Source: an archaeon
GTDB taxonomy: Archaea; Iainarchaeota; Iainarchaeia; Iainarchaeales; CSSED10-239
Length of the DNA: 32,000 nt
Reading direction: 5' to 3'
Assembly (NCBI GenBank): GCA_035400625.1
Contig: DAOMZT010000002.1
Span: forward strand, 90,001-122,000
Notes under the pieces: model-generated
Database searches by the model: none
What the model saw: the letters and a program-made list of their open reading frames with translations, nothing else
Told to the model about the DNA's origin: nothing
Position numbers and translations under genes: made by a program
Shown here: in pieces, positions 893-32,000 of the stretch
How the letters are laid out: each line of letters starts with the position of its first letter
Numbering within the stretch: position 1 is the first letter of the stretch

Positions 893-1177
893 TTATTTTC
901 TTTTATAAACATTATCTCTATGTTCAAAATCAAGAAATATAATGTGATTCTTTTCTTTTTTTACAGAAAATAACAGAACAAAATTGTTTCTTATATGCAC
1001 TCTTTTTTTATCTGAATAATCATATTTTAAATTTTTATAATGTTCTATATTAATTTCATCAGAATTGATTATTTCTCTAATCTTTCTATATAACTCTTCT
1101 GCTAGCTTTTTATCTTTTTTATTAAGCTTTGCAATAATTTTCTTTAAATTGTCTGTAAATTCGAATGTAAATGTCAT
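893..1177 (-). CDS. relE: RelE/ParE-family type II toxin (mRNA interferase-like)
   Basis: Typical family layout: N-terminal F.FTDNLKKIIAKLNKKDKKLAEELYRKIREI, then YKNLKYDYSDKKRVHIRNNFVLLFSVKKEKNHIIFLDFEHRDNVY. The track start at 1186 is a TTG; the ATG at 1175-1177 (MTFTFEF...) is more likely. Lies downstream of a small RHH protein. Confidence 0.7.
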   Translation of the reverse strand: MTFTFEFTDNLKKIIAKLNKKDKKLAEELYRKIREIINSDEINIEHYKNLKYDYSDKKRVHIRNNFVLLFSVKKEKNHIIFLDFEHRDNVYKRK

Positions 1178-1242
1178 AAAATTCAATAGAATTATGAATT
1201 TACTACTTTATATGCTTTTTGAGGGTAGATGTCCAGTGCGAA

Positions 1243-3168: not shown

Positions 3169-4695
3169 TTAATGTATTGAAGATATTGGATCGTCATAAT
3201 AATCTTTTAAATTATTTCCAATATTTGGTGTTTTCTTCTTTATTTCCTCTACACAATAATGCACAAACAATCTATATGAGAAATGAGCATGTTCTGTTGT
3301 TCTTGTTTTTGAAACATGATCCATCTCTCTAGCATTTATTGTATACAATATCTTTGCATTAGTTCCAAGTGGACAAACACATTGGCAAAATTCTTTACTA
3401 AATCCATTTTTAAGAAGTTTAATCCACAAGCCATATGCTTTATTTAAACCAGAGATATATTCTCCTTCTGCATCTTTTGGCAAAAAAATAGGAATTGCAA
3501 ATCCATATTCTGGAGAAATAAAACTACTAATCCATGTTAGCATCCTGTTTCTATGAAGATCTCTCCATGCTCCAAAGTCAATAATTCCTTCAAAATTATA
3601 ATTTGCAAGTTCTGTTGCTCTGTGTGGGCGATAGCCTGTACAATCATATTCAAAGGCTTGTTTTATATATTTGTCTATTTTCTCTTGTGTTAATTTCTGA
3701 GAATTAAGATAAACTTCTTCGTTTTTATATTCTACGGTGTGTCCATTATCAAGAAGATAGTTATAAACTAATAGCTTATCTGAATTATCTGTGTGTCCAA
3801 TAATCTTAACTTGGCTTTCTATATTTTCAAAAATAAGATCATCTATTTTTATGTTTTTTTTATTGCCAAAAATCAAAGGAGTGATAGTGTTTGATGTGTT
3901 TTTTATTTCTTCTCTTTTTTTATCAAATATACATGTGCTTTTTTCAAGAAGTGTTGGATAGACTTTTTCAAGTTTTTTTTGCATTTCTTCTCCAATCTCA
4001 TTAAATTCCTTAATATTACTTGTAAAAAGATCAACAATTAAGGATCTAAAAACTTGAGAATTTGTAGTCATTGCAAAATTAGTATATGCACTTGCAGGTA
4101 GAATATATCTTGCAGAATCAAAGGCTTTCTTTTTTATTAGTTTTTCTTCTACAACAATGTTTCTTTTTGAAAATTCATTTTTTATTTCATTTATTATTTT
4201 TGGAAGAATCTTGGAATACACTTCAAAAAGATAATCCATTGTCTCAATATATTCTTTTTTCAGTTCAGGCTTGCCATCAAGTTCCTTAGGAATAATATAG
4301 CACGGTTTAGAAAAGTCCTGATATCTTGTTGATTTTTCCAAGTATGCTGCAAGTCTTTTATTTTCACAATATTTGTTTGTTGCAATCATGCTTGTGTTCT
4401 CAAAACAAAGAGTAACATTACCATGTTGTTCAATAGAATGGTGAGCAACACCAAGAGTAATGCTTTTATGAAAGTTACCTATCTTTTCTCTGTTAAATCC
4501 TTCTTCATTTAATATTTCTCTAACAATCTGCTCAAAAGACTTTGCACTTTGGCTAAGTCTTGCAACAGTTCTACAATGAGCTTCTGCAAAGTTTTCTGTT
4601 GAAATAGAACAAGGGATATTTTCTTTTTCTATAACTTCATAAACTATATCATCTAACAATTTTATTTTTCTTTTAAATTCATCCATATTTTTCAC
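3169..4695 (-). CDS. thyX: Double-length flavin-dependent thymidylate synthase (ThyX/Thy1)-like protein, two tandem ThyX-like halves
   Basis: N half: HHSIEQHGNVTLCFENTSMIATNKYCENKRLAAYLEKSTRY and ARYILPASAYTNFAMTTNSQVFRSLIVDL. C half: NFEGIIDFGAWRDLHRNRMLTW and PLGTNAKILYTINAREMDHVSKTRT. Both follow the ThyX pattern (RHRxxS...SxRY; LP...t.N.R.l.hf). Flanked by SHMT and dCMP deaminase. Confidence 0.65.
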   Translation of the reverse strand: MKNMDEFKRKIKLLDDIVYEVIEKENIPCSISTENFAEAHCRTVARLSQSAKSFEQIVREILNEEGFNREKIGNFHKSITLGVAHHSIEQHGNVTLCFENTSMIATNKYCENKRLAAYLEKSTRYQDFSKPCYIIPKELDGKPELKKEYIETMDYLFEVYSKILPKIINEIKNEFSKRNIVVEEKLIKKKAFDSARYILPASAYTNFAMTTNSQVFRSLIVDLFTSNIKEFNEIGEEMQKKLEKVYPTLLEKSTCIFDKKREEIKNTSNTITPLIFGNKKNIKIDDLIFENIESQVKIIGHTDNSDKLLVYNYLLDNGHTVEYKNEEVYLNSQKLTQEKIDKYIKQAFEYDCTGYRPHRATELANYNFEGIIDFGAWRDLHRNRMLTWISSFISPEYGFAIPIFLPKDAEGEYISGLNKAYGLWIKLLKNGFSKEFCQCVCPLGTNAKILYTINAREMDHVSKTRTTEHAHFSYRLFVHYCVEEIKKKTPNIGNNLKDYYDDPISSIH

Positions 4696-23075: not shown

Positions 23076-23417
23076 TTAATCTAATCCTAAACTAATCTTT
23101 ATTGCATTATCAACTTTATGCATTGTTTCTTCAGATAGGCTTCCTAATTTCTTTTTTATTCTAGTTATTGAAATTGACCTAATTTGATTAAGTTGTATAT
23201 AACTATTCTCAAGTAAATTCCCTTCTCCTTTTAAGACACATACTAAATAAGGATAACTTTGATCTAATTTAGAGGTAATTGTGGCAATAATTGTAGTGCT
23301 TGAAAACTTATTTCCTATATTGTTTTGAATAATTACACAAGGTCTTGTCTTTCCTTGTTCAGAACCAATAATTGGATCTAAATCCACAATTACAACATCT
23401 CCACGCTGTATTAACAT
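23076..23417 (-). CDS. mazF: MazF/PemK-family endoribonuclease toxin
   Basis: MLIQRGDVVIVDLDPIIGSEQGKTRPCVIIQNNIGNKFSSTTIIATITS is the canonical PemK/MazF N-terminal signature. 113 aa, 10 nt downstream of an AbrB/SpoVT-type gene. Confidence 0.85.
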   Translation of the reverse strand: MLIQRGDVVIVDLDPIIGSEQGKTRPCVIIQNNIGNKFSSTTIIATITSKLDQSYPYLVCVLKGEGNLLENSYIQLNQIRSISITRIKKKLGSLSEETMHKVDNAIKISLGLD

Positions 23418-23706: not shown

Positions 23707-23835
23707 ATTCATACCATTACATATTTAAATAGATCATATATATCTTGTATTTTCTCATTATTAAAATGCATAGTTTACTTTTTTTGGAAAATCACAATAA
23801 AATAAGCTTTTTTAATAAATACACAAAAATGTATA

Positions 23836-23908
23836 TGCTTCGAGGCGGATTCGGACCGCCGATTTCCAGATTATGAGTCTGGCGTTCTAACCACTAAACC
23901 ACCGAAGC
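23836..23908 (-). tRNA. tRNA with CAU anticodon (elongator Met or Ile2), 73 nt, no encoded CCA
   Basis: Hand-folded: acceptor GCTTCGG/TCGAAGC, D arm GTTT-AGTGGTTA-GAAC, anticodon stem CCAGA/TCTGG, loop CTCATAA, T arm GGCGG-TCCGAAT-CCGCC. It lacks the A1:U72 pair and triple G:C anticodon stem of archaeal initiators. Confidence 0.85.
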
Positions 23909-23961: not shown

Positions 23962-24684
23962 TTATTTTTCTGCAACTATTCGATAAATATCACATATTTC
24001 TAAATGAGTAGTATAAAGGGTTCTATATTGTGCAGGGATTTTAGAAACATCTACCCTCTCTGTACGATAAGACAAAAAATTGCTTTTTTTTAAAGCAGTA
24101 TCTAAATTTCTTTTAAAATACAAATTGCTACCACTTCTTTCTACAAAATAATATGCAATAAATTTGCCTTTTGGTTTAAGCTTTTTATAAATTAAATCAA
24201 ATGTTTTTTGAGTATATTCTTCTGAACCAATATTAACATACTGTTGACTTATGTCTTTAGCTGCTTTTGCATTTTTTTTAACTTTTCTATAAGTTTTTTC
24301 TTCTTTATAAAAGCCTACTGCAAAATCACTTGTAATGATATCTACTGAATTATCTGGAAACCTAGAAAGACCTTTATTAAAATCTGCTTTTATCTGTTCT
24401 AAATTTTTTGGCTTTTTTTTCTTTAATCTGCTTTTTCTTATTACTTTAAGTTTTGGATTTTTTTCTGCATCAAAATGTAAAAATCTTTTACTTCTTAAAC
24501 CTTTCAAATCAATTCCATAAAAATTAAAATTAGAAAATCTTTCAGCTAACATTTTTGAACGATATGCCCTATCGTCTCCAACATTACCTAAATGAACTAC
24601 ATTTTTTTTACCTAATTGAACTTGAGCTGTTTTTGACCTTCTAATCCATCTTATTGGTCTTTTCTTAGGTGTCCTTACTATCAA
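23962..24684 (-). CDS. Class I SAM-dependent methyltransferase-like protein with a Lys-rich insertion
   Basis: VVHLGNVGDD (motif I-like), FYGIDL (motif II acidic residue), FPDNSVDIITSDFAV and LKPKGKFIAYYF (motifs IV-V-like). TTG start 9 nt after the upstream stop. Confidence 0.45.
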   Translation of the reverse strand: MIVRTPKKRPIRWIRRSKTAQVQLGKKNVVHLGNVGDDRAYRSKMLAERFSNFNFYGIDLKGLRSKRFLHFDAEKNPKLKVIRKSRLKKKKPKNLEQIKADFNKGLSRFPDNSVDIITSDFAVGFYKEEKTYRKVKKNAKAAKDISQQYVNIGSEEYTQKTFDLIYKKLKPKGKFIAYYFVERSGSNLYFKRNLDTALKKSNFLSYRTERVDVSKIPAQYRTLYTTHLEICDIYRIVAEK

Positions 24685-24693
24685 AAAAAATCA

Positions 24694-25368
24694 CTATTTA
24701 ATATTGCTTGTGGTTTTTATGTTTATTTGGTCATGGGCATCAATAATAAAGAAAATATCTGCTAAACCAATAAACACACCTGTTTCCAAAACTCCAGGTA
24801 TATTTTTAACAGAAAACTCAAAATCATCAAGAGAGATATTTTTATCTAAAGTTATTCTTGCTAGAAAATGGCCTGTTTCTGTCTTAACAAAATTGTCATC
24901 TGTATCTTTAACAACCCTAGCAAAACCAAAGCTTTGAAGATTAAGTATTGTTCTTTCCCAAGCAAAAGAACTAATCTCAACATAGACATCTTTATCTATT
25001 GTTTCAACAACATCTTGATATTTGGAAACAACAACTAGGTTTAAAGCAGACTGAGCAATCATCTTATCTCTAATAAAAGAACGAGTATCTTTTTTTATAA
25101 AATTATTATAGGTATCTACTTGGCTAGAAAACTCTATAGCCACATCTATTTCTCTTTCACTTAAAGAAATAATCTGTTGTCCAAGATTATATAGTTGTGC
25201 TGCTTGTTTTGCTGTTGTTGCGACAAAAATTACTTTTTTATTTTTTGCATGTAATATCTTTACTAATTCATCAACAAAATCAGAATCCTGTTCGCTTGTG
25301 CCTATGGCAACGATTGCTCCTTCTTTTATAAAGGTTTCAAACTTTTCTACAATTTTTGGAAGATTCAT
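24694..25368 (-). CDS. Ribose-5-phosphate isomerase A (RpiA)-family protein, active-site motifs degenerate
   Basis: Collinear with RpiA: GAIVAIGTSEQ (vs GVGTGST), IDVAIEFSSQVD (vs IYVDGADEI), FIKKDTRSFIRDKMIA (vs MIKGGGAALTREKIIA), IPGVLETGVFIGLADIFFI (vs IPGVVTVGLF). 224 aa. Confidence 0.55.
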   Translation of the reverse strand: MNLPKIVEKFETFIKEGAIVAIGTSEQDSDFVDELVKILHAKNKKVIFVATTAKQAAQLYNLGQQIISLSEREIDVAIEFSSQVDTYNNFIKKDTRSFIRDKMIAQSALNLVVVSKYQDVVETIDKDVYVEISSFAWERTILNLQSFGFARVVKDTDDNFVKTETGHFLARITLDKNISLDDFEFSVKNIPGVLETGVFIGLADIFFIIDAHDQINIKTTSNIK

Positions 25369-25438
25369 ATTTTACCTTTTTTATAACTTAATTCTATACA
25401 TTTTAATTTAAATATATTTCCTTTCTTATGTTATTTAA

Positions 25439-25499
25439 GACAAATGATGAAAAATGAACACCTGCTGATTTGTGATGATAAAATGGGCGGGCTGATGTC
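25439..25499 (+). ncRNA. C/D-box sRNA (2'-O-methylation guide)
   Basis: Terminal stem GACA (25439-42) / TGTC (25496-99). C box ATGATGA 25444-50, 14-nt spacer, D' box CTGA 25465-68, 3-nt linker, C' box GTGATGA 25472-78, 13-nt spacer, D box CTGA 25492-95. TATA-like TTTAAATATA lies about 25-30 nt upstream. Located in an intergenic gap. The D' spacer 25455-63 is identical to plus-strand 31003-31011, so it is complementary to the minus-strand 23S transcript. Confidence 0.8.
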
Positions 25500-25796
25500 T
25501 TAAACTTTTTTCTTTCTCTTATATTTTGTTATTGGGTATTTTGTGGTTTTCTTTTTTTCTTTTTTTACAATTGCCTTTACTGTTTTTGGCTTCTCTTTTT
25601 TTCTTTCTTTTTGTTCAAGACGAGATACTCTTTTATTTAATACGTCCACTTTAGAATTTATTATCTCTTGACTTGCAGAGCCAAGTGGCAATCTCTTTAC
25701 TGCTTTTTGCTGTCTTTTTTCAAGAACCAACAAAAGTATGTTTCCTATTAAAAACACTCCAATAGCAAACAAAAGAACCGTTGTTAATGTTTCCAT
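25500..25796 (-). CDS. Small membrane-anchored protein (one N-terminal TM, Lys-rich coiled C-terminus)
   Basis: 98 aa: TVLLFAIGVFLIGNILLLVL hydrophobic helix, then a charged tail. GGAG SD lies 12 nt upstream. Confidence 0.5.
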   Translation of the reverse strand: METLTTVLLFAIGVFLIGNILLLVLEKRQQKAVKRLPLGSASQEIINSKVDVLNKRVSRLEQKERKKEKPKTVKAIVKKEKKKTTKYPITKYKRKKKV

Positions 25797-30644: not shown

Positions 30645-32000
30645 GTTTGGTTTTTTCTCGGACCCTTAGTATCAGAAAACTTAAACAGTCACAATTGCTT
30701 GCTCCCGTCTTACATTACTGACCTATCAAACCGGTGTTCTTCCGGAGTCCTCGTCCTGTATCTCTACAGAAATGGCTGTCTCGTCTTAGGGATTGCTTCG
30801 AGCTTAGATGCTTTCAGCTCTTATCAATTACGGCGTAGCTACCCGACAGTGCCTTGTCAGACAATCGGTACACCAGAGACCGCGACGCGCCGTTCCTCTC
30901 GTACTAAACGCATCTTCCCTTCAGACAACCTACGCTGCCAATAGATAGGAACCAAACTGACTCGCATCGTTCTTAACCCAACTAACGTACGGCTTTAATG
31001 AGTGAACACCTCCACCCTTGGCTAATTATGCCCAGCCAGGATGCCGTGAGCCGACAGCGAGGTAGCAAACCGCGGGGTCGATGTGAACTCTTGCCCGCGA
31101 CGACTCAGTTACCCCCAGGGTAAGTTTACTGTCAGACTAGGCCCCCACTAATAGGGACACTAGCGTTCGCTAGACCCATATTTCTATCCAGCGTTTCGTG
31201 CTTTGAGAAACACTGTTAAGCGTGCTTTTGGTCTTGTCCTCTACAGCAGATTTCTGACCTGCTTGAGCACACCTTTGGACACCCCTGATATTCTTTCAGG
31301 GGTGTACCGCCCCAGTCAAACTACCAGATCAAATGCTGTCCGTTTATTCAACGTAGAGTTGCATTTTTTCTACTAGATGGTGTTACATTGTTGTCTATTT
31401 ACCCCCTAGCGAGGATAACATCGGCGACTCCCATCTACTCTCTATAGTAGAAAGAATACAACCACATCAGACTGTAGTAAACCTCCATGGGGTCTTATCC
31501 TCCCATTGACAGTTCGTGGCGTATTCACCACGTGTGCAAGTTCACTAGGCTTAAACTTGGGACAGCGATAATCTCGTTACTTCCTTGGTGCAAGCCGGCA
31601 ATTAACCGGCAAGGTATTACGCTACCATGAGAGCCTCAGAGTTAGGCCCGCTCTTTACCAGCGCTTGGACCAGTTGGACCTGGTATTCACGTACTAGCAG
31701 TGAGCAGAGGTCAGTGACTATACACACCGTTGCCGGCTAGCAGTCACCTGTGTTTTTGATAAACAGTCGGACTATCCTTGTTACTAAGACTTACAGTTTA
31801 CTGAACCGTAAGCACCCCTCATACCTAAGATACGGGGCCAATGTTGCCGAATTCCCTAAGTTTAATTATCCTATTACGCCTGAGCCTACTCAGCTAGGGA
31901 CACCTTTCTCAGTTCTTGGTACGATTAACAAAACACTGCATAGTTTTCTTTTCAGGGGTCCTTGGCCTCGATAAAAGATTTCTCCCATTCATACCTTTAA
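30645..32000 (-). rRNA. 23S rRNA, 3' ~1.36 kb (domains IV-VI); 5' part lies beyond the window
   Basis: Reverse complement contains: sarcin-ricin loop AGTACGAGAGGAAC (~30886-30899); PTC region CCTCGCTGTCGGCTC and GGGGGTAACTGAG; A-loop GGTGTTCA (~31003-31011); GACTGGGGCGGTAC (~31300); AAGACCCCATGGAGGTTTACTA (~31490); GACTGTTTATCAAAAACACAG (~31750). Landmark spacing is collinear with E. coli 23S, so no large insertions. The 3' end is estimated from alignment to the E. coli 3' terminus and is approximate. Confidence 0.95.

Follow-up and report, generated by a model that had tools for sequence, protein, structure and literature searches.

What occupies the 131-nt gap between the RpiA gene (24694-25368, minus strand, Pfam PF06026) and a 98-aa open reading frame (ORF; 25500-25796, minus strand) in the DNA of an archaeon of the phylum Iainarchaeota, and what might it act on? 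The stretch analysed here, which we call the window, comprises the 32,000 nucleotides from 90,001 to 122,000 of contig DAOMZT010000002.1 (assembly GCA_035400625.1). In the gap, on the strand opposite to both flanking genes, we find a box C/D small RNA (sRNA) of about 65 nt, complete with C, D', C' and D boxes (25436-25502, plus strand). From its sequence and that of its relatives, we consider it highly probable that this is a C/D sRNA whose D' guide directs 2'-O-methylation of the 23S rRNA nucleotide equivalent to Escherichia coli U2552, and whose D guide directs the same modification at 16S C1402. An initial annotation of this locus had proposed the sRNA and its U2552 target, and its coordinates for the four boxes and for the GACA/UGUC flanks all hold when re-read from the sequence. 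The elements of the RNA are as follows.

25436-25442, plus strand: 5' arm of the terminal stem, UAAGACA, which pairs with 25496-25502
25444-25450, plus strand: C box, AUGAUGA, with UGAUGA invariant in 33 of 33 family members
25451-25464, plus strand: D' spacer of 14 nt, with the guide part UGAACACCU at 25455-25463 directed at 23S 2549-2557
25465-25468, plus strand: D' box, CUGA, canonical and kept in the family
25469-25471, plus strand: D'-C' linker UUU, the internal K-loop, 3-7 nt and variable in relatives
25472-25478, plus strand: C' box, GUGAUGA, canonical and kept in the family
25479-25491, plus strand: D spacer of 13 nt, with the proposed guide AUGGGCGG at 25483-25490 for 16S 1399-1406
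25492-25495, plus strand: D box, CUGA, canonical and invariant in the family
25496-25502, plus strand: 3' arm of the terminal stem, UGUCUUA, ending in 3 bases shared with the stop codon of the convergent 98-aa ORF

Read from 25436 to 25502 on the plus strand, the RNA is UAAGACA-A-AUGAUGA-AAAAUGAACACCUG-CUGA-UUU-GUGAUGA-UAAAAUGGGCGGG-CUGA-UGUCUUA. Its terminal stem proved longer than first described: the pairing of GACA with UGUC was right and the length of 4 bp was not, since 25436-25442 and 25496-25502 form 7 bp. The four-box motif occurs once in the window, which has a GC content of about 30% outside rRNA, and in none of 300 first-order Markov simulations (32 kb each, both strands); neither the box pattern nor a permissive Rfam scan reveals a second C/D sRNA in the window. 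At gathering thresholds, Rfam finds in the whole window only the archaeal 23S rRNA (30646-32000, minus strand, cut by the window end) and two tRNAs. In the permissive scan, the full-length plus-strand matches at the sRNA belong almost exclusively to C/D families, the best being snoPyro_CD (RF00095; 32.7 bits, threshold 45) and sR2 (RF01139; 31.8 bits, threshold 42). Canonical boxes, C/D-family matches and the covarying stem described below together bear out the initial annotation's claim of a C/D sRNA architecture on the plus strand.

The proposed 23S target lies within the same window. The 9-mer TGAACACCT has just two occurrences there, at 25455 and 31003 of the plus strand, so that 25455-25463 is indeed identical to 31003-31011; because the 23S gene is on the minus strand, the plus-strand sRNA is complementary to its rRNA. 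Positions 2-10 upstream of the D' box form 9 Watson-Crick pairs with 23S 5'-AGGUGUUCA-3', with position 1 left free, at the following site.

31003-31011, minus strand: target 5'-AGGUGUUCA-3' in helix 92 (the A-loop) of 23S rRNA, E. coli 2549-2557, within the Rfam LSU_rRNA_archaea match at 30646-32000

Alignment with E. coli K-12 rrlH, by which the 23S of the window was placed on E. coli numbering, puts 31003-31011 on 2557-2549 and 31008 on U2552. Position 25460, the fifth nucleotide upstream of D', pairs with the U at 31008, which is the nucleotide selected by the N+5 rule and the one the initial annotation had named. This is the sole 9-bp Watson-Crick site for the D' guide in the full 23S region of the same organism (contig L001). 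The probability of a perfect 9-mer match arising by chance at a single predefined site and register is 4^-9, about 4e-6, in keeping with the earlier judgement that the A-loop match is unlikely to be accidental; for a match anywhere in some 4.5 kb of rRNA it is about 0.02 for each guide and register. No match in the two tRNAs of the window exceeds 7 pairs. The Rfam archaeal consensus for this helix is cgGGcUGUUCgCCcg, with a C2551-G2557 closing pair, and here the closing pair is a non-canonical G-A formed by G2551 and A2557 (window 31009 and 31003, minus strand), a pair shared by every one of the six relatives with a readable A-loop. With C at position 4 and U at position 10, the D' guide is fitted to the lineage's own A-loop and not to the archaeal consensus.

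Is the RNA kept where the surrounding proteins have diverged? Relatives came from contigs that encode RpiA homologues and from a pattern scan covering a single genome for each species. In 10 genomes of related Iainarchaeota (Diapherotrites), namely L131, L132, L134, L136, L074, L095, L020, L040, L042 and L137, whose RpiA proteins range from 83% down to 52% identity to that of the window, the sRNA has the RpiA gene on one side and the 98-aa ORF on the other, at a site a few kb from the 23S gene. In L138 (RpiA 42% identical) the sRNA is absent from the site and a tRNA stands in its place. The 11 Iainarchaeota sequences share invariant boxes and invariant cores of the D' guide (GAACACCU) and the D guide (AUGGGCGGG), and differ in the D' spacer (its unpaired 5' portion), in the D'-C' linker (3-7 nt) and in the sequence of the stem. 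Free variation of the linker in length and sequence is what would be expected of an unconstrained loop, and the stem changes are compensatory, with versions such as UAAGACA/UGUCUUA, UACAC/GUGUA, AGGC/GCCU and UAGC/GCUA. The A-loop, GGAGGUGUUCACUC, is identical to that of the window in all six relatives where it can be read (L074, L095, L131, L133, L136 and L137), so guide-target complementarity is maintained. Relatives, in short, have lost neither the boxes nor the complementarity, a loss that the initial annotation had said would count against it. Many metagenome assemblies contain an identical locus, two of the contigs measuring 813 and 521 kb. We set aside as evidence of selection the same-species contigs L001-L010, in which RpiA is identical, because they are too similar: there are 12 variable columns in 1 kb and none of them falls in the sRNA.

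The initial annotation had left the D guide unassigned, and its sequence plausibly targets 16S C1402, a site whose ribose methylation is universally conserved. Positions 2-9 upstream of the D box form 8 contiguous pairs (7 Watson-Crick and one G-U) with E. coli 16S ACCGCCCGUC, and the best Watson-Crick-rich site for this guide in E. coli 16S is ACCGCCCGUCACA at 1398-1410. The number of pairs is 8 in the clade of the window, 9 in other Iainarchaeota and 10 in Altiarchaeota (16S 1400-1409). The fifth nucleotide upstream of D (25487) pairs with C1402, and the same C1402 is selected in every clade compared. The D guide core AUGGGCG is invariant in 33 distinct sequences from two phyla, Iainarchaeota and Altiarchaeota; the D' guide varies between these phyla, as fits a variable helix 92 stem, and the constancy of the D guide fits an invariant 16S target. 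Neither the 23S nor the two tRNAs of the window offer a convincing site for the D guide. Neither the window nor any fetched locus includes the 16S 1400 region, and we expect from its universal conservation that 1399-1406 in this organism is identical to the universal sequence; this 16S stretch is the site of the universal 1392/1406 primers. In E. coli, C1402 is m4Cm, its ribose methyl group being added by RsmI, and the equivalent nucleotides are methylated in yeast (Cm1639), human (Cm1703) and plants (Cm1645), the last under the guidance of the C/D snoRNA AtU43 (PMC11542601). Among DPANN archaea, Cm1402 has been detected in Nanoarchaeum equitans, where no sRNA for it was found, and Iho sR11 of Ignicoccus (I. 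hospitalis) is a candidate Cm1402 guide (PMC5389701).

The family extends well beyond the RpiA locus. We scanned with a pattern made up of a C box, GAACA with its last A fifth upstream of D', a D' box and a C' box, leaving the D box out, and obtained at least 120 loci. Among the matches listed, 85 are archaeal and 35 bacterial, and a D box follows C' by 9-15 nt in 80 of the 85 archaeal matches and in 0 of the 35 bacterial ones. The archaeal D' guides among the matches listed fall into a few discrete classes, each of which extends A-loop complementarity; such clustering is not expected of random, unrelated guides. Again among the matches listed, the classes are these.

GAACACCU: Iainarchaeota
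GAACAACC: Micrarchaeota and Altiarchaeota
GAACACCC: records labelled Woesearchaeota, Undinarchaeota, Nanoarchaeota or Methanosarcinales
GAACAGAC: records labelled Crenarchaeota, Nitrososphaerota or Njordarchaeota

These guides predict an rRNA of GGUUGUUC(A/G) in Micrarchaeota and Altiarchaeota and of GUCUGUUCG in the Thaumarchaeota-type class; no 23S gene of Altiarchaeota, Micrarchaeota or other lineages outside the clade lies within the fetched loci. In Altiarchaeota, guide positions 11-10 are GC or AU, which implies GC or AU at rRNA 2557-2558, both of them able to pair with U2551-G2550. This lends indirect support to the idea that the Altiarchaeota guides track real helix 92 variants. The dual-guide U2552/C1402 family itself comprises 33 distinct sequences from Iainarchaeota and Altiarchaeota, in which boxes and guide cores are invariant and linkers vary. 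In their alignment, 84% of terminal-stem cells are paired and 73 cells have changed in both partners; no shuffle out of 500 attains 84%, and sliding the partner by 1-3 columns leaves 25-47% paired. A covariance model built from 28 members, with the window's own clade left out, finds 25436-25503 over its full model length with 57.4 bits (E ~9e-13), and the next-best match in the window scores 10.8 bits.

The scan and the fetched 23S sequences yielded further observations on guides and on the 23S. Micrarchaeota (L011, L013, L021, L028, L033, L038, L047, L060 and others) carry a different dual-guide sRNA with the same U2552 D' register, and its D guide, of the GGCUGACAGCGU type, would pair with 23S 2501-2510 if 2503 were C, selecting U2504. 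Two other D-guide classes among the matches listed are GCGGAAGUAACU, in records labelled Methanosarcinales or Woesearchaeota, and GGGAAGAGCCGNU, in records labelled Crenarchaeota, Nitrososphaerota or Njordarchaeota. Position 2503 of the window's own 23S (31057, minus strand) is C, in the context UACCUCG-C-UGUCGGCUC, as compared with A2503 in E. coli and in the Rfam archaeal consensus; A2503, a target of RlmN/Cfr at the tunnel entrance, is nearly universally conserved. C2503 also occurs in L001, from the same species, and in the relatives L074, L131, L133 and L136.

Two sequence signals flank the sRNA.

25407-25414, plus strand: TATA-like box TTTAAATA, about 29 nt upstream of the first stem base
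25506-25511, plus strand: run of six T (T6), a possible archaeal oligo-T termination signal

Some 29 nt before the first stem base is the usual archaeal promoter distance, and the TATA-like box probably acts as promoter of the sRNA and perhaps of the divergent RpiA gene as well. In L131, L132, L134, L136, L074, L095 and L020, as in the window, the C box is preceded at 35-37 nt by an octamer resembling TTTAWATA, weaker TATA-like versions lie at the same distance in L040, L042 and L137, and Altiarchaeota have a TTTAT(T/C) motif at a similar distance upstream. A run of at least 5 T occurs within about 35 nt downstream in all 11 Iainarchaeota except L134, and in few Altiarchaeota. Matches to sigma-70 promoters and hairpin terminators were disregarded as bacterial signals in an archaeal host. 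In the minimum-free-energy fold of the free RNA (25459-25494, plus strand), the 3' part of the D' guide and the D' box pair with the D guide (CACCUGCU with GGGCGGG; z = -3.4), and this guide-guide pairing would need to be opened in the ribonucleoprotein (RNP). It may be a by-product of G+C-rich targets; the Altiarchaeota guides GAACAACC appear, by eye, to do without part of the complementarity.

How might such an RNA work? We propose that it is transcribed from its own TATA-box promoter, and that L7Ae would then bind the K-turn formed by C and D and the K-loop formed by C' and D', with Nop5 and fibrillarin assembling on the L7Ae-bound motifs, steps for which we draw on the established biochemistry of archaeal C/D RNPs. 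The D' guide would open helix 92 of the nascent 23S rRNA and place U2552 opposite its fifth nucleotide, where fibrillarin would methylate the 2'-OH. The D guide would pair with 16S CCGCCCGU (1399-1406) and lead to 2'-O-methylation of C1402 in the P-site decoding centre. A single RNA would in this way install two of the few ribose methylations common to all three domains. C/D RNP structures reportedly contain a guide-substrate duplex of about 10 bp (Lin et al. 2011; Yang et al. 2016, PNAS), and pairing at positions 2-10 with position 1 free fits a duplex of that length.

Several observations weigh against this mechanism. Both duplexes are short, 9 bp for D' and 8 bp, including one G-U, for D. 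The spacers, at 14 and 13 nt, depart from the canonical 12; those of relatives span 12-14 (D' and D spacers of 13-14 and 12 nt in other Iainarchaeota, 12 and 12 in Altiarchaeota), and the extra bases sit in the unpaired 5' part of each spacer. In L131, guide position 10 is G instead of U with the rRNA unchanged, which leaves 8 pairs and indicates that this pair is dispensable. No true guide-target compensatory change was seen within the clade, as follows from an A-loop target that is invariant there, so the covariation test that the initial annotation had proposed comes down to complementarity kept throughout, with no compensatory change. The C1402 assignment was tested on E. coli 16S, and hence rests on the universal conservation of 1399-1406. 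Against the Rfam C/D families, which derive from Pyrococcus, the RNA also falls short of the gathering thresholds, and so is not filed under them. Genes for fibrillarin, Nop5 and L7Ae are all missing from the window, whose one L7Ae-family protein was rejected as a candidate because it is L30e, and a tblastn search with approximate fibrillarin and RlmE sequences against 1.19 Mb of fetched DNA, covering part of the genomes only, gave no match. The D' guide could also be redundant, should the genome encode an RlmE homologue outside the window. As to the proteins, we take COG1498 to be Nop5. Fibrillarin (COG1889) and COG1498 are among 38 single-copy genes used to judge the completeness of archaeal genomes (PMC9258230), and both are likely to be present in this one.

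Some of these points could also be accommodated if the RNA were a real C/D sRNA of which only one guide, or neither, directs methylation, acting mainly as a chaperone that keeps helix 92, the 16S 1400 region or both open while ribosomes are assembled, with Um2552 made by a stand-alone RlmE/FtsJ-type enzyme. Duplexes of 8-9 bp, spacers off 12 nt and the uncompensated loss of the position-10 pair in L131 are all compatible with such a role; chaperone roles have been proposed for archaeal C/D sRNAs (PMC4644070, PMC5389701), and an RlmE homologue is thought to make Um2552 in haloarchaea (PMC11542601). Nevertheless, both guides put a nucleotide that is methylated elsewhere exactly at N+5, a precision needless for a pure chaperone, the N+5 register is kept in 33 of 33 family members, and positions 2-10 suit the duplex length reported for C/D RNP structures. 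We therefore regard a mainly chaperoning RNA as improbable. It is less probable still, to the point of being hard to credit, that the RNA is a genuine C/D sRNA with other targets (tRNAs, other rRNA sites or mRNAs) and that its A-loop match is a coincidence. The guides were scanned against the organism's 23S and two tRNAs only, and a chance of about 2% per guide and register for a 9-mer match somewhere in some 4.5 kb of rRNA is not vanishing, but the nucleotide matched is one of the few that are methylated universally, 10 relatives retain the match, the D' guides of other archaeal lineages form discrete classes that extend A-loop complementarity, and the two tRNAs of the window offer no match above 7 pairs.

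Could the boxes instead be a chance array of short motifs in AT-rich intergenic DNA, with no functional RNA at all? The boxes are short and the Rfam scores fall under the gathering thresholds, as such an explanation would have it, yet it is effectively refuted by the absence of the motif from 300 simulated windows, by syntenic conservation while the flanking proteins fall to 52% identity, by compensatory changes in the stem, and by a 57-bit match to a model built from other clades. A methylation guide for U2552 and C1402 remains the reading we favour.

Elsewhere in the window, the neighbourhood of the sRNA offers several observations of separate interest. Beside the RpiA gene lies a gene for a 240-aa protein (23962-24684, minus strand) with weak, sub-threshold class-I methyltransferase matches (Methyltransf_31) and no NCBIfam name, which is syntenic in L114 and L095. 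A PemK/MazF toxin gene (23076-23417, minus strand) and a 79-aa MazE-family antitoxin ORF adjoin the two tRNA genes, and a ParE-like toxin gene lies at 893-1186 (minus strand), so that this small DPANN genome carries toxin-antitoxin modules. An Rfam match to Plastid-ycf2 (23835-23908, plus strand; 57.1 against a threshold of 65.7), antisense to tRNA-Met, is almost certainly a tRNA-like artefact. The ThyX protein, at 508 aa (3169-4695, minus strand), contains two Thy1 stretches and is about twice the usual length; its gene adjoins a fused kinase-like/dCMP deaminase gene and an SHMT gene. Upstream of the 23S gene (L001 1-4945; window 30646-32000) is a YchF/OLA1-like GTPase gene and not 16S, which indicates that the rRNA genes are unlinked, and no 5S or 16S gene lies within 10 kb of the 23S.

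How new is such an RNA? The equivalent of U2552, the first A-loop nucleotide, has been predicted to be sRNA-guided in five of seven archaea, and the A-loop sites predicted for Sulfolobus acidocaldarius agree with the experimental sites of Hansen et al. 2002 (Dennis et al. 2015, PMC4644070); a 2025 paper lists yeast snR52-Nop1 among the known routes to Um2552 (PMC12123411). The mechanism is thus a known one, and the initial annotation had rated its novelty too highly. Our view of Um2552 synthesis is unchanged, because the RNA-guided archaeal route was already established by prediction. We found no description of a C/D sRNA from Iainarchaeota or Altiarchaeota in the full-text literature searched, and what appears to be undescribed is the sRNA family in these two phyla, the presence of U2552 and C1402 guides on one RNA, and the wide spread of U2552 guides in DPANN lineages.

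The locus matters, we think, in three respects. Small-genome, low-GC DPANN archaea would keep RNA-guided ribose methylation for the most conserved sites of the ribosome; a concrete candidate for a Cm1402 guide in archaea is now at hand, where the only precedent found is tentative; and a conserved sRNA family was missed here by standard Rfam thresholds, so that the annotation of DPANN genomes is probably without it. For specialists this will be no surprise, and it is best described as a well-supported gain in annotation with a two-target design. It is tempting to go further and to speculate that this is a core, possibly ancestral DPANN guide RNA that makes both Um2552 and Cm1402 and replaces RlmE- and RsmI-type enzymes in reduced genomes, an extension that we consider possible and, on balance, doubtful. 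If it were true, two guides aimed at different subunits might link the maturation of both, and homologues might supply the missing Cm1402 guide of N. equitans.

Among known systems, the stand-alone, protein-only enzymes RlmE/FtsJ (Um2552) and RsmI (Cm1402) of E. coli modify the same two nucleotides (PMC11542601), but do so without a guide RNA, by a choice of target unrelated in mechanism. The Pyrococcus families snoPyro_CD and sR2 match the sRNA over its full length on the plus strand with all boxes aligned, and their guides are unrelated to those of the window; these are different families of the same class. For the C1402 guide, the likeness is to snoRNAs of eukaryotes and to one archaeal candidate. 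Yeast snR70 is assigned to 18S Cm1639. Like it, plant U43 (AtU43, for 18S Cm1645, equivalent to human Cm1703) and Iho sR11 represent C/D guidance, known or proposed, of the nucleotide equivalent to 16S C1402 (PMC11542601, PMC5389701); what sets the sRNA of the window apart is that its guides for C1402 and U2552 lie on a single RNA, and Iho sR11 is only a candidate. For the U2552 guide, yeast snR52 (25S Um2921, with Spb1 as backup) exemplifies the same RNA-guided, fibrillarin-type methylation of the equivalent nucleotide (PMC11542601, PMC12123411), although it is a larger, eukaryotic snoRNA whose likeness to the sRNA lies in the boxes. The archaeal sRNAs predicted to guide methylation at U2552 (PMC4644070) share with the RNA described here the class, the four boxes, the target nucleotide and the N+5 rule. 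The sRNA of the window differs from them in coming from an uncultivated, low-GC DPANN lineage, in a D' guide suited to a helix 92 with G2551 and A2557, and in a second guide directed, on our reading, at 16S C1402 and not at a nearby 23S site.

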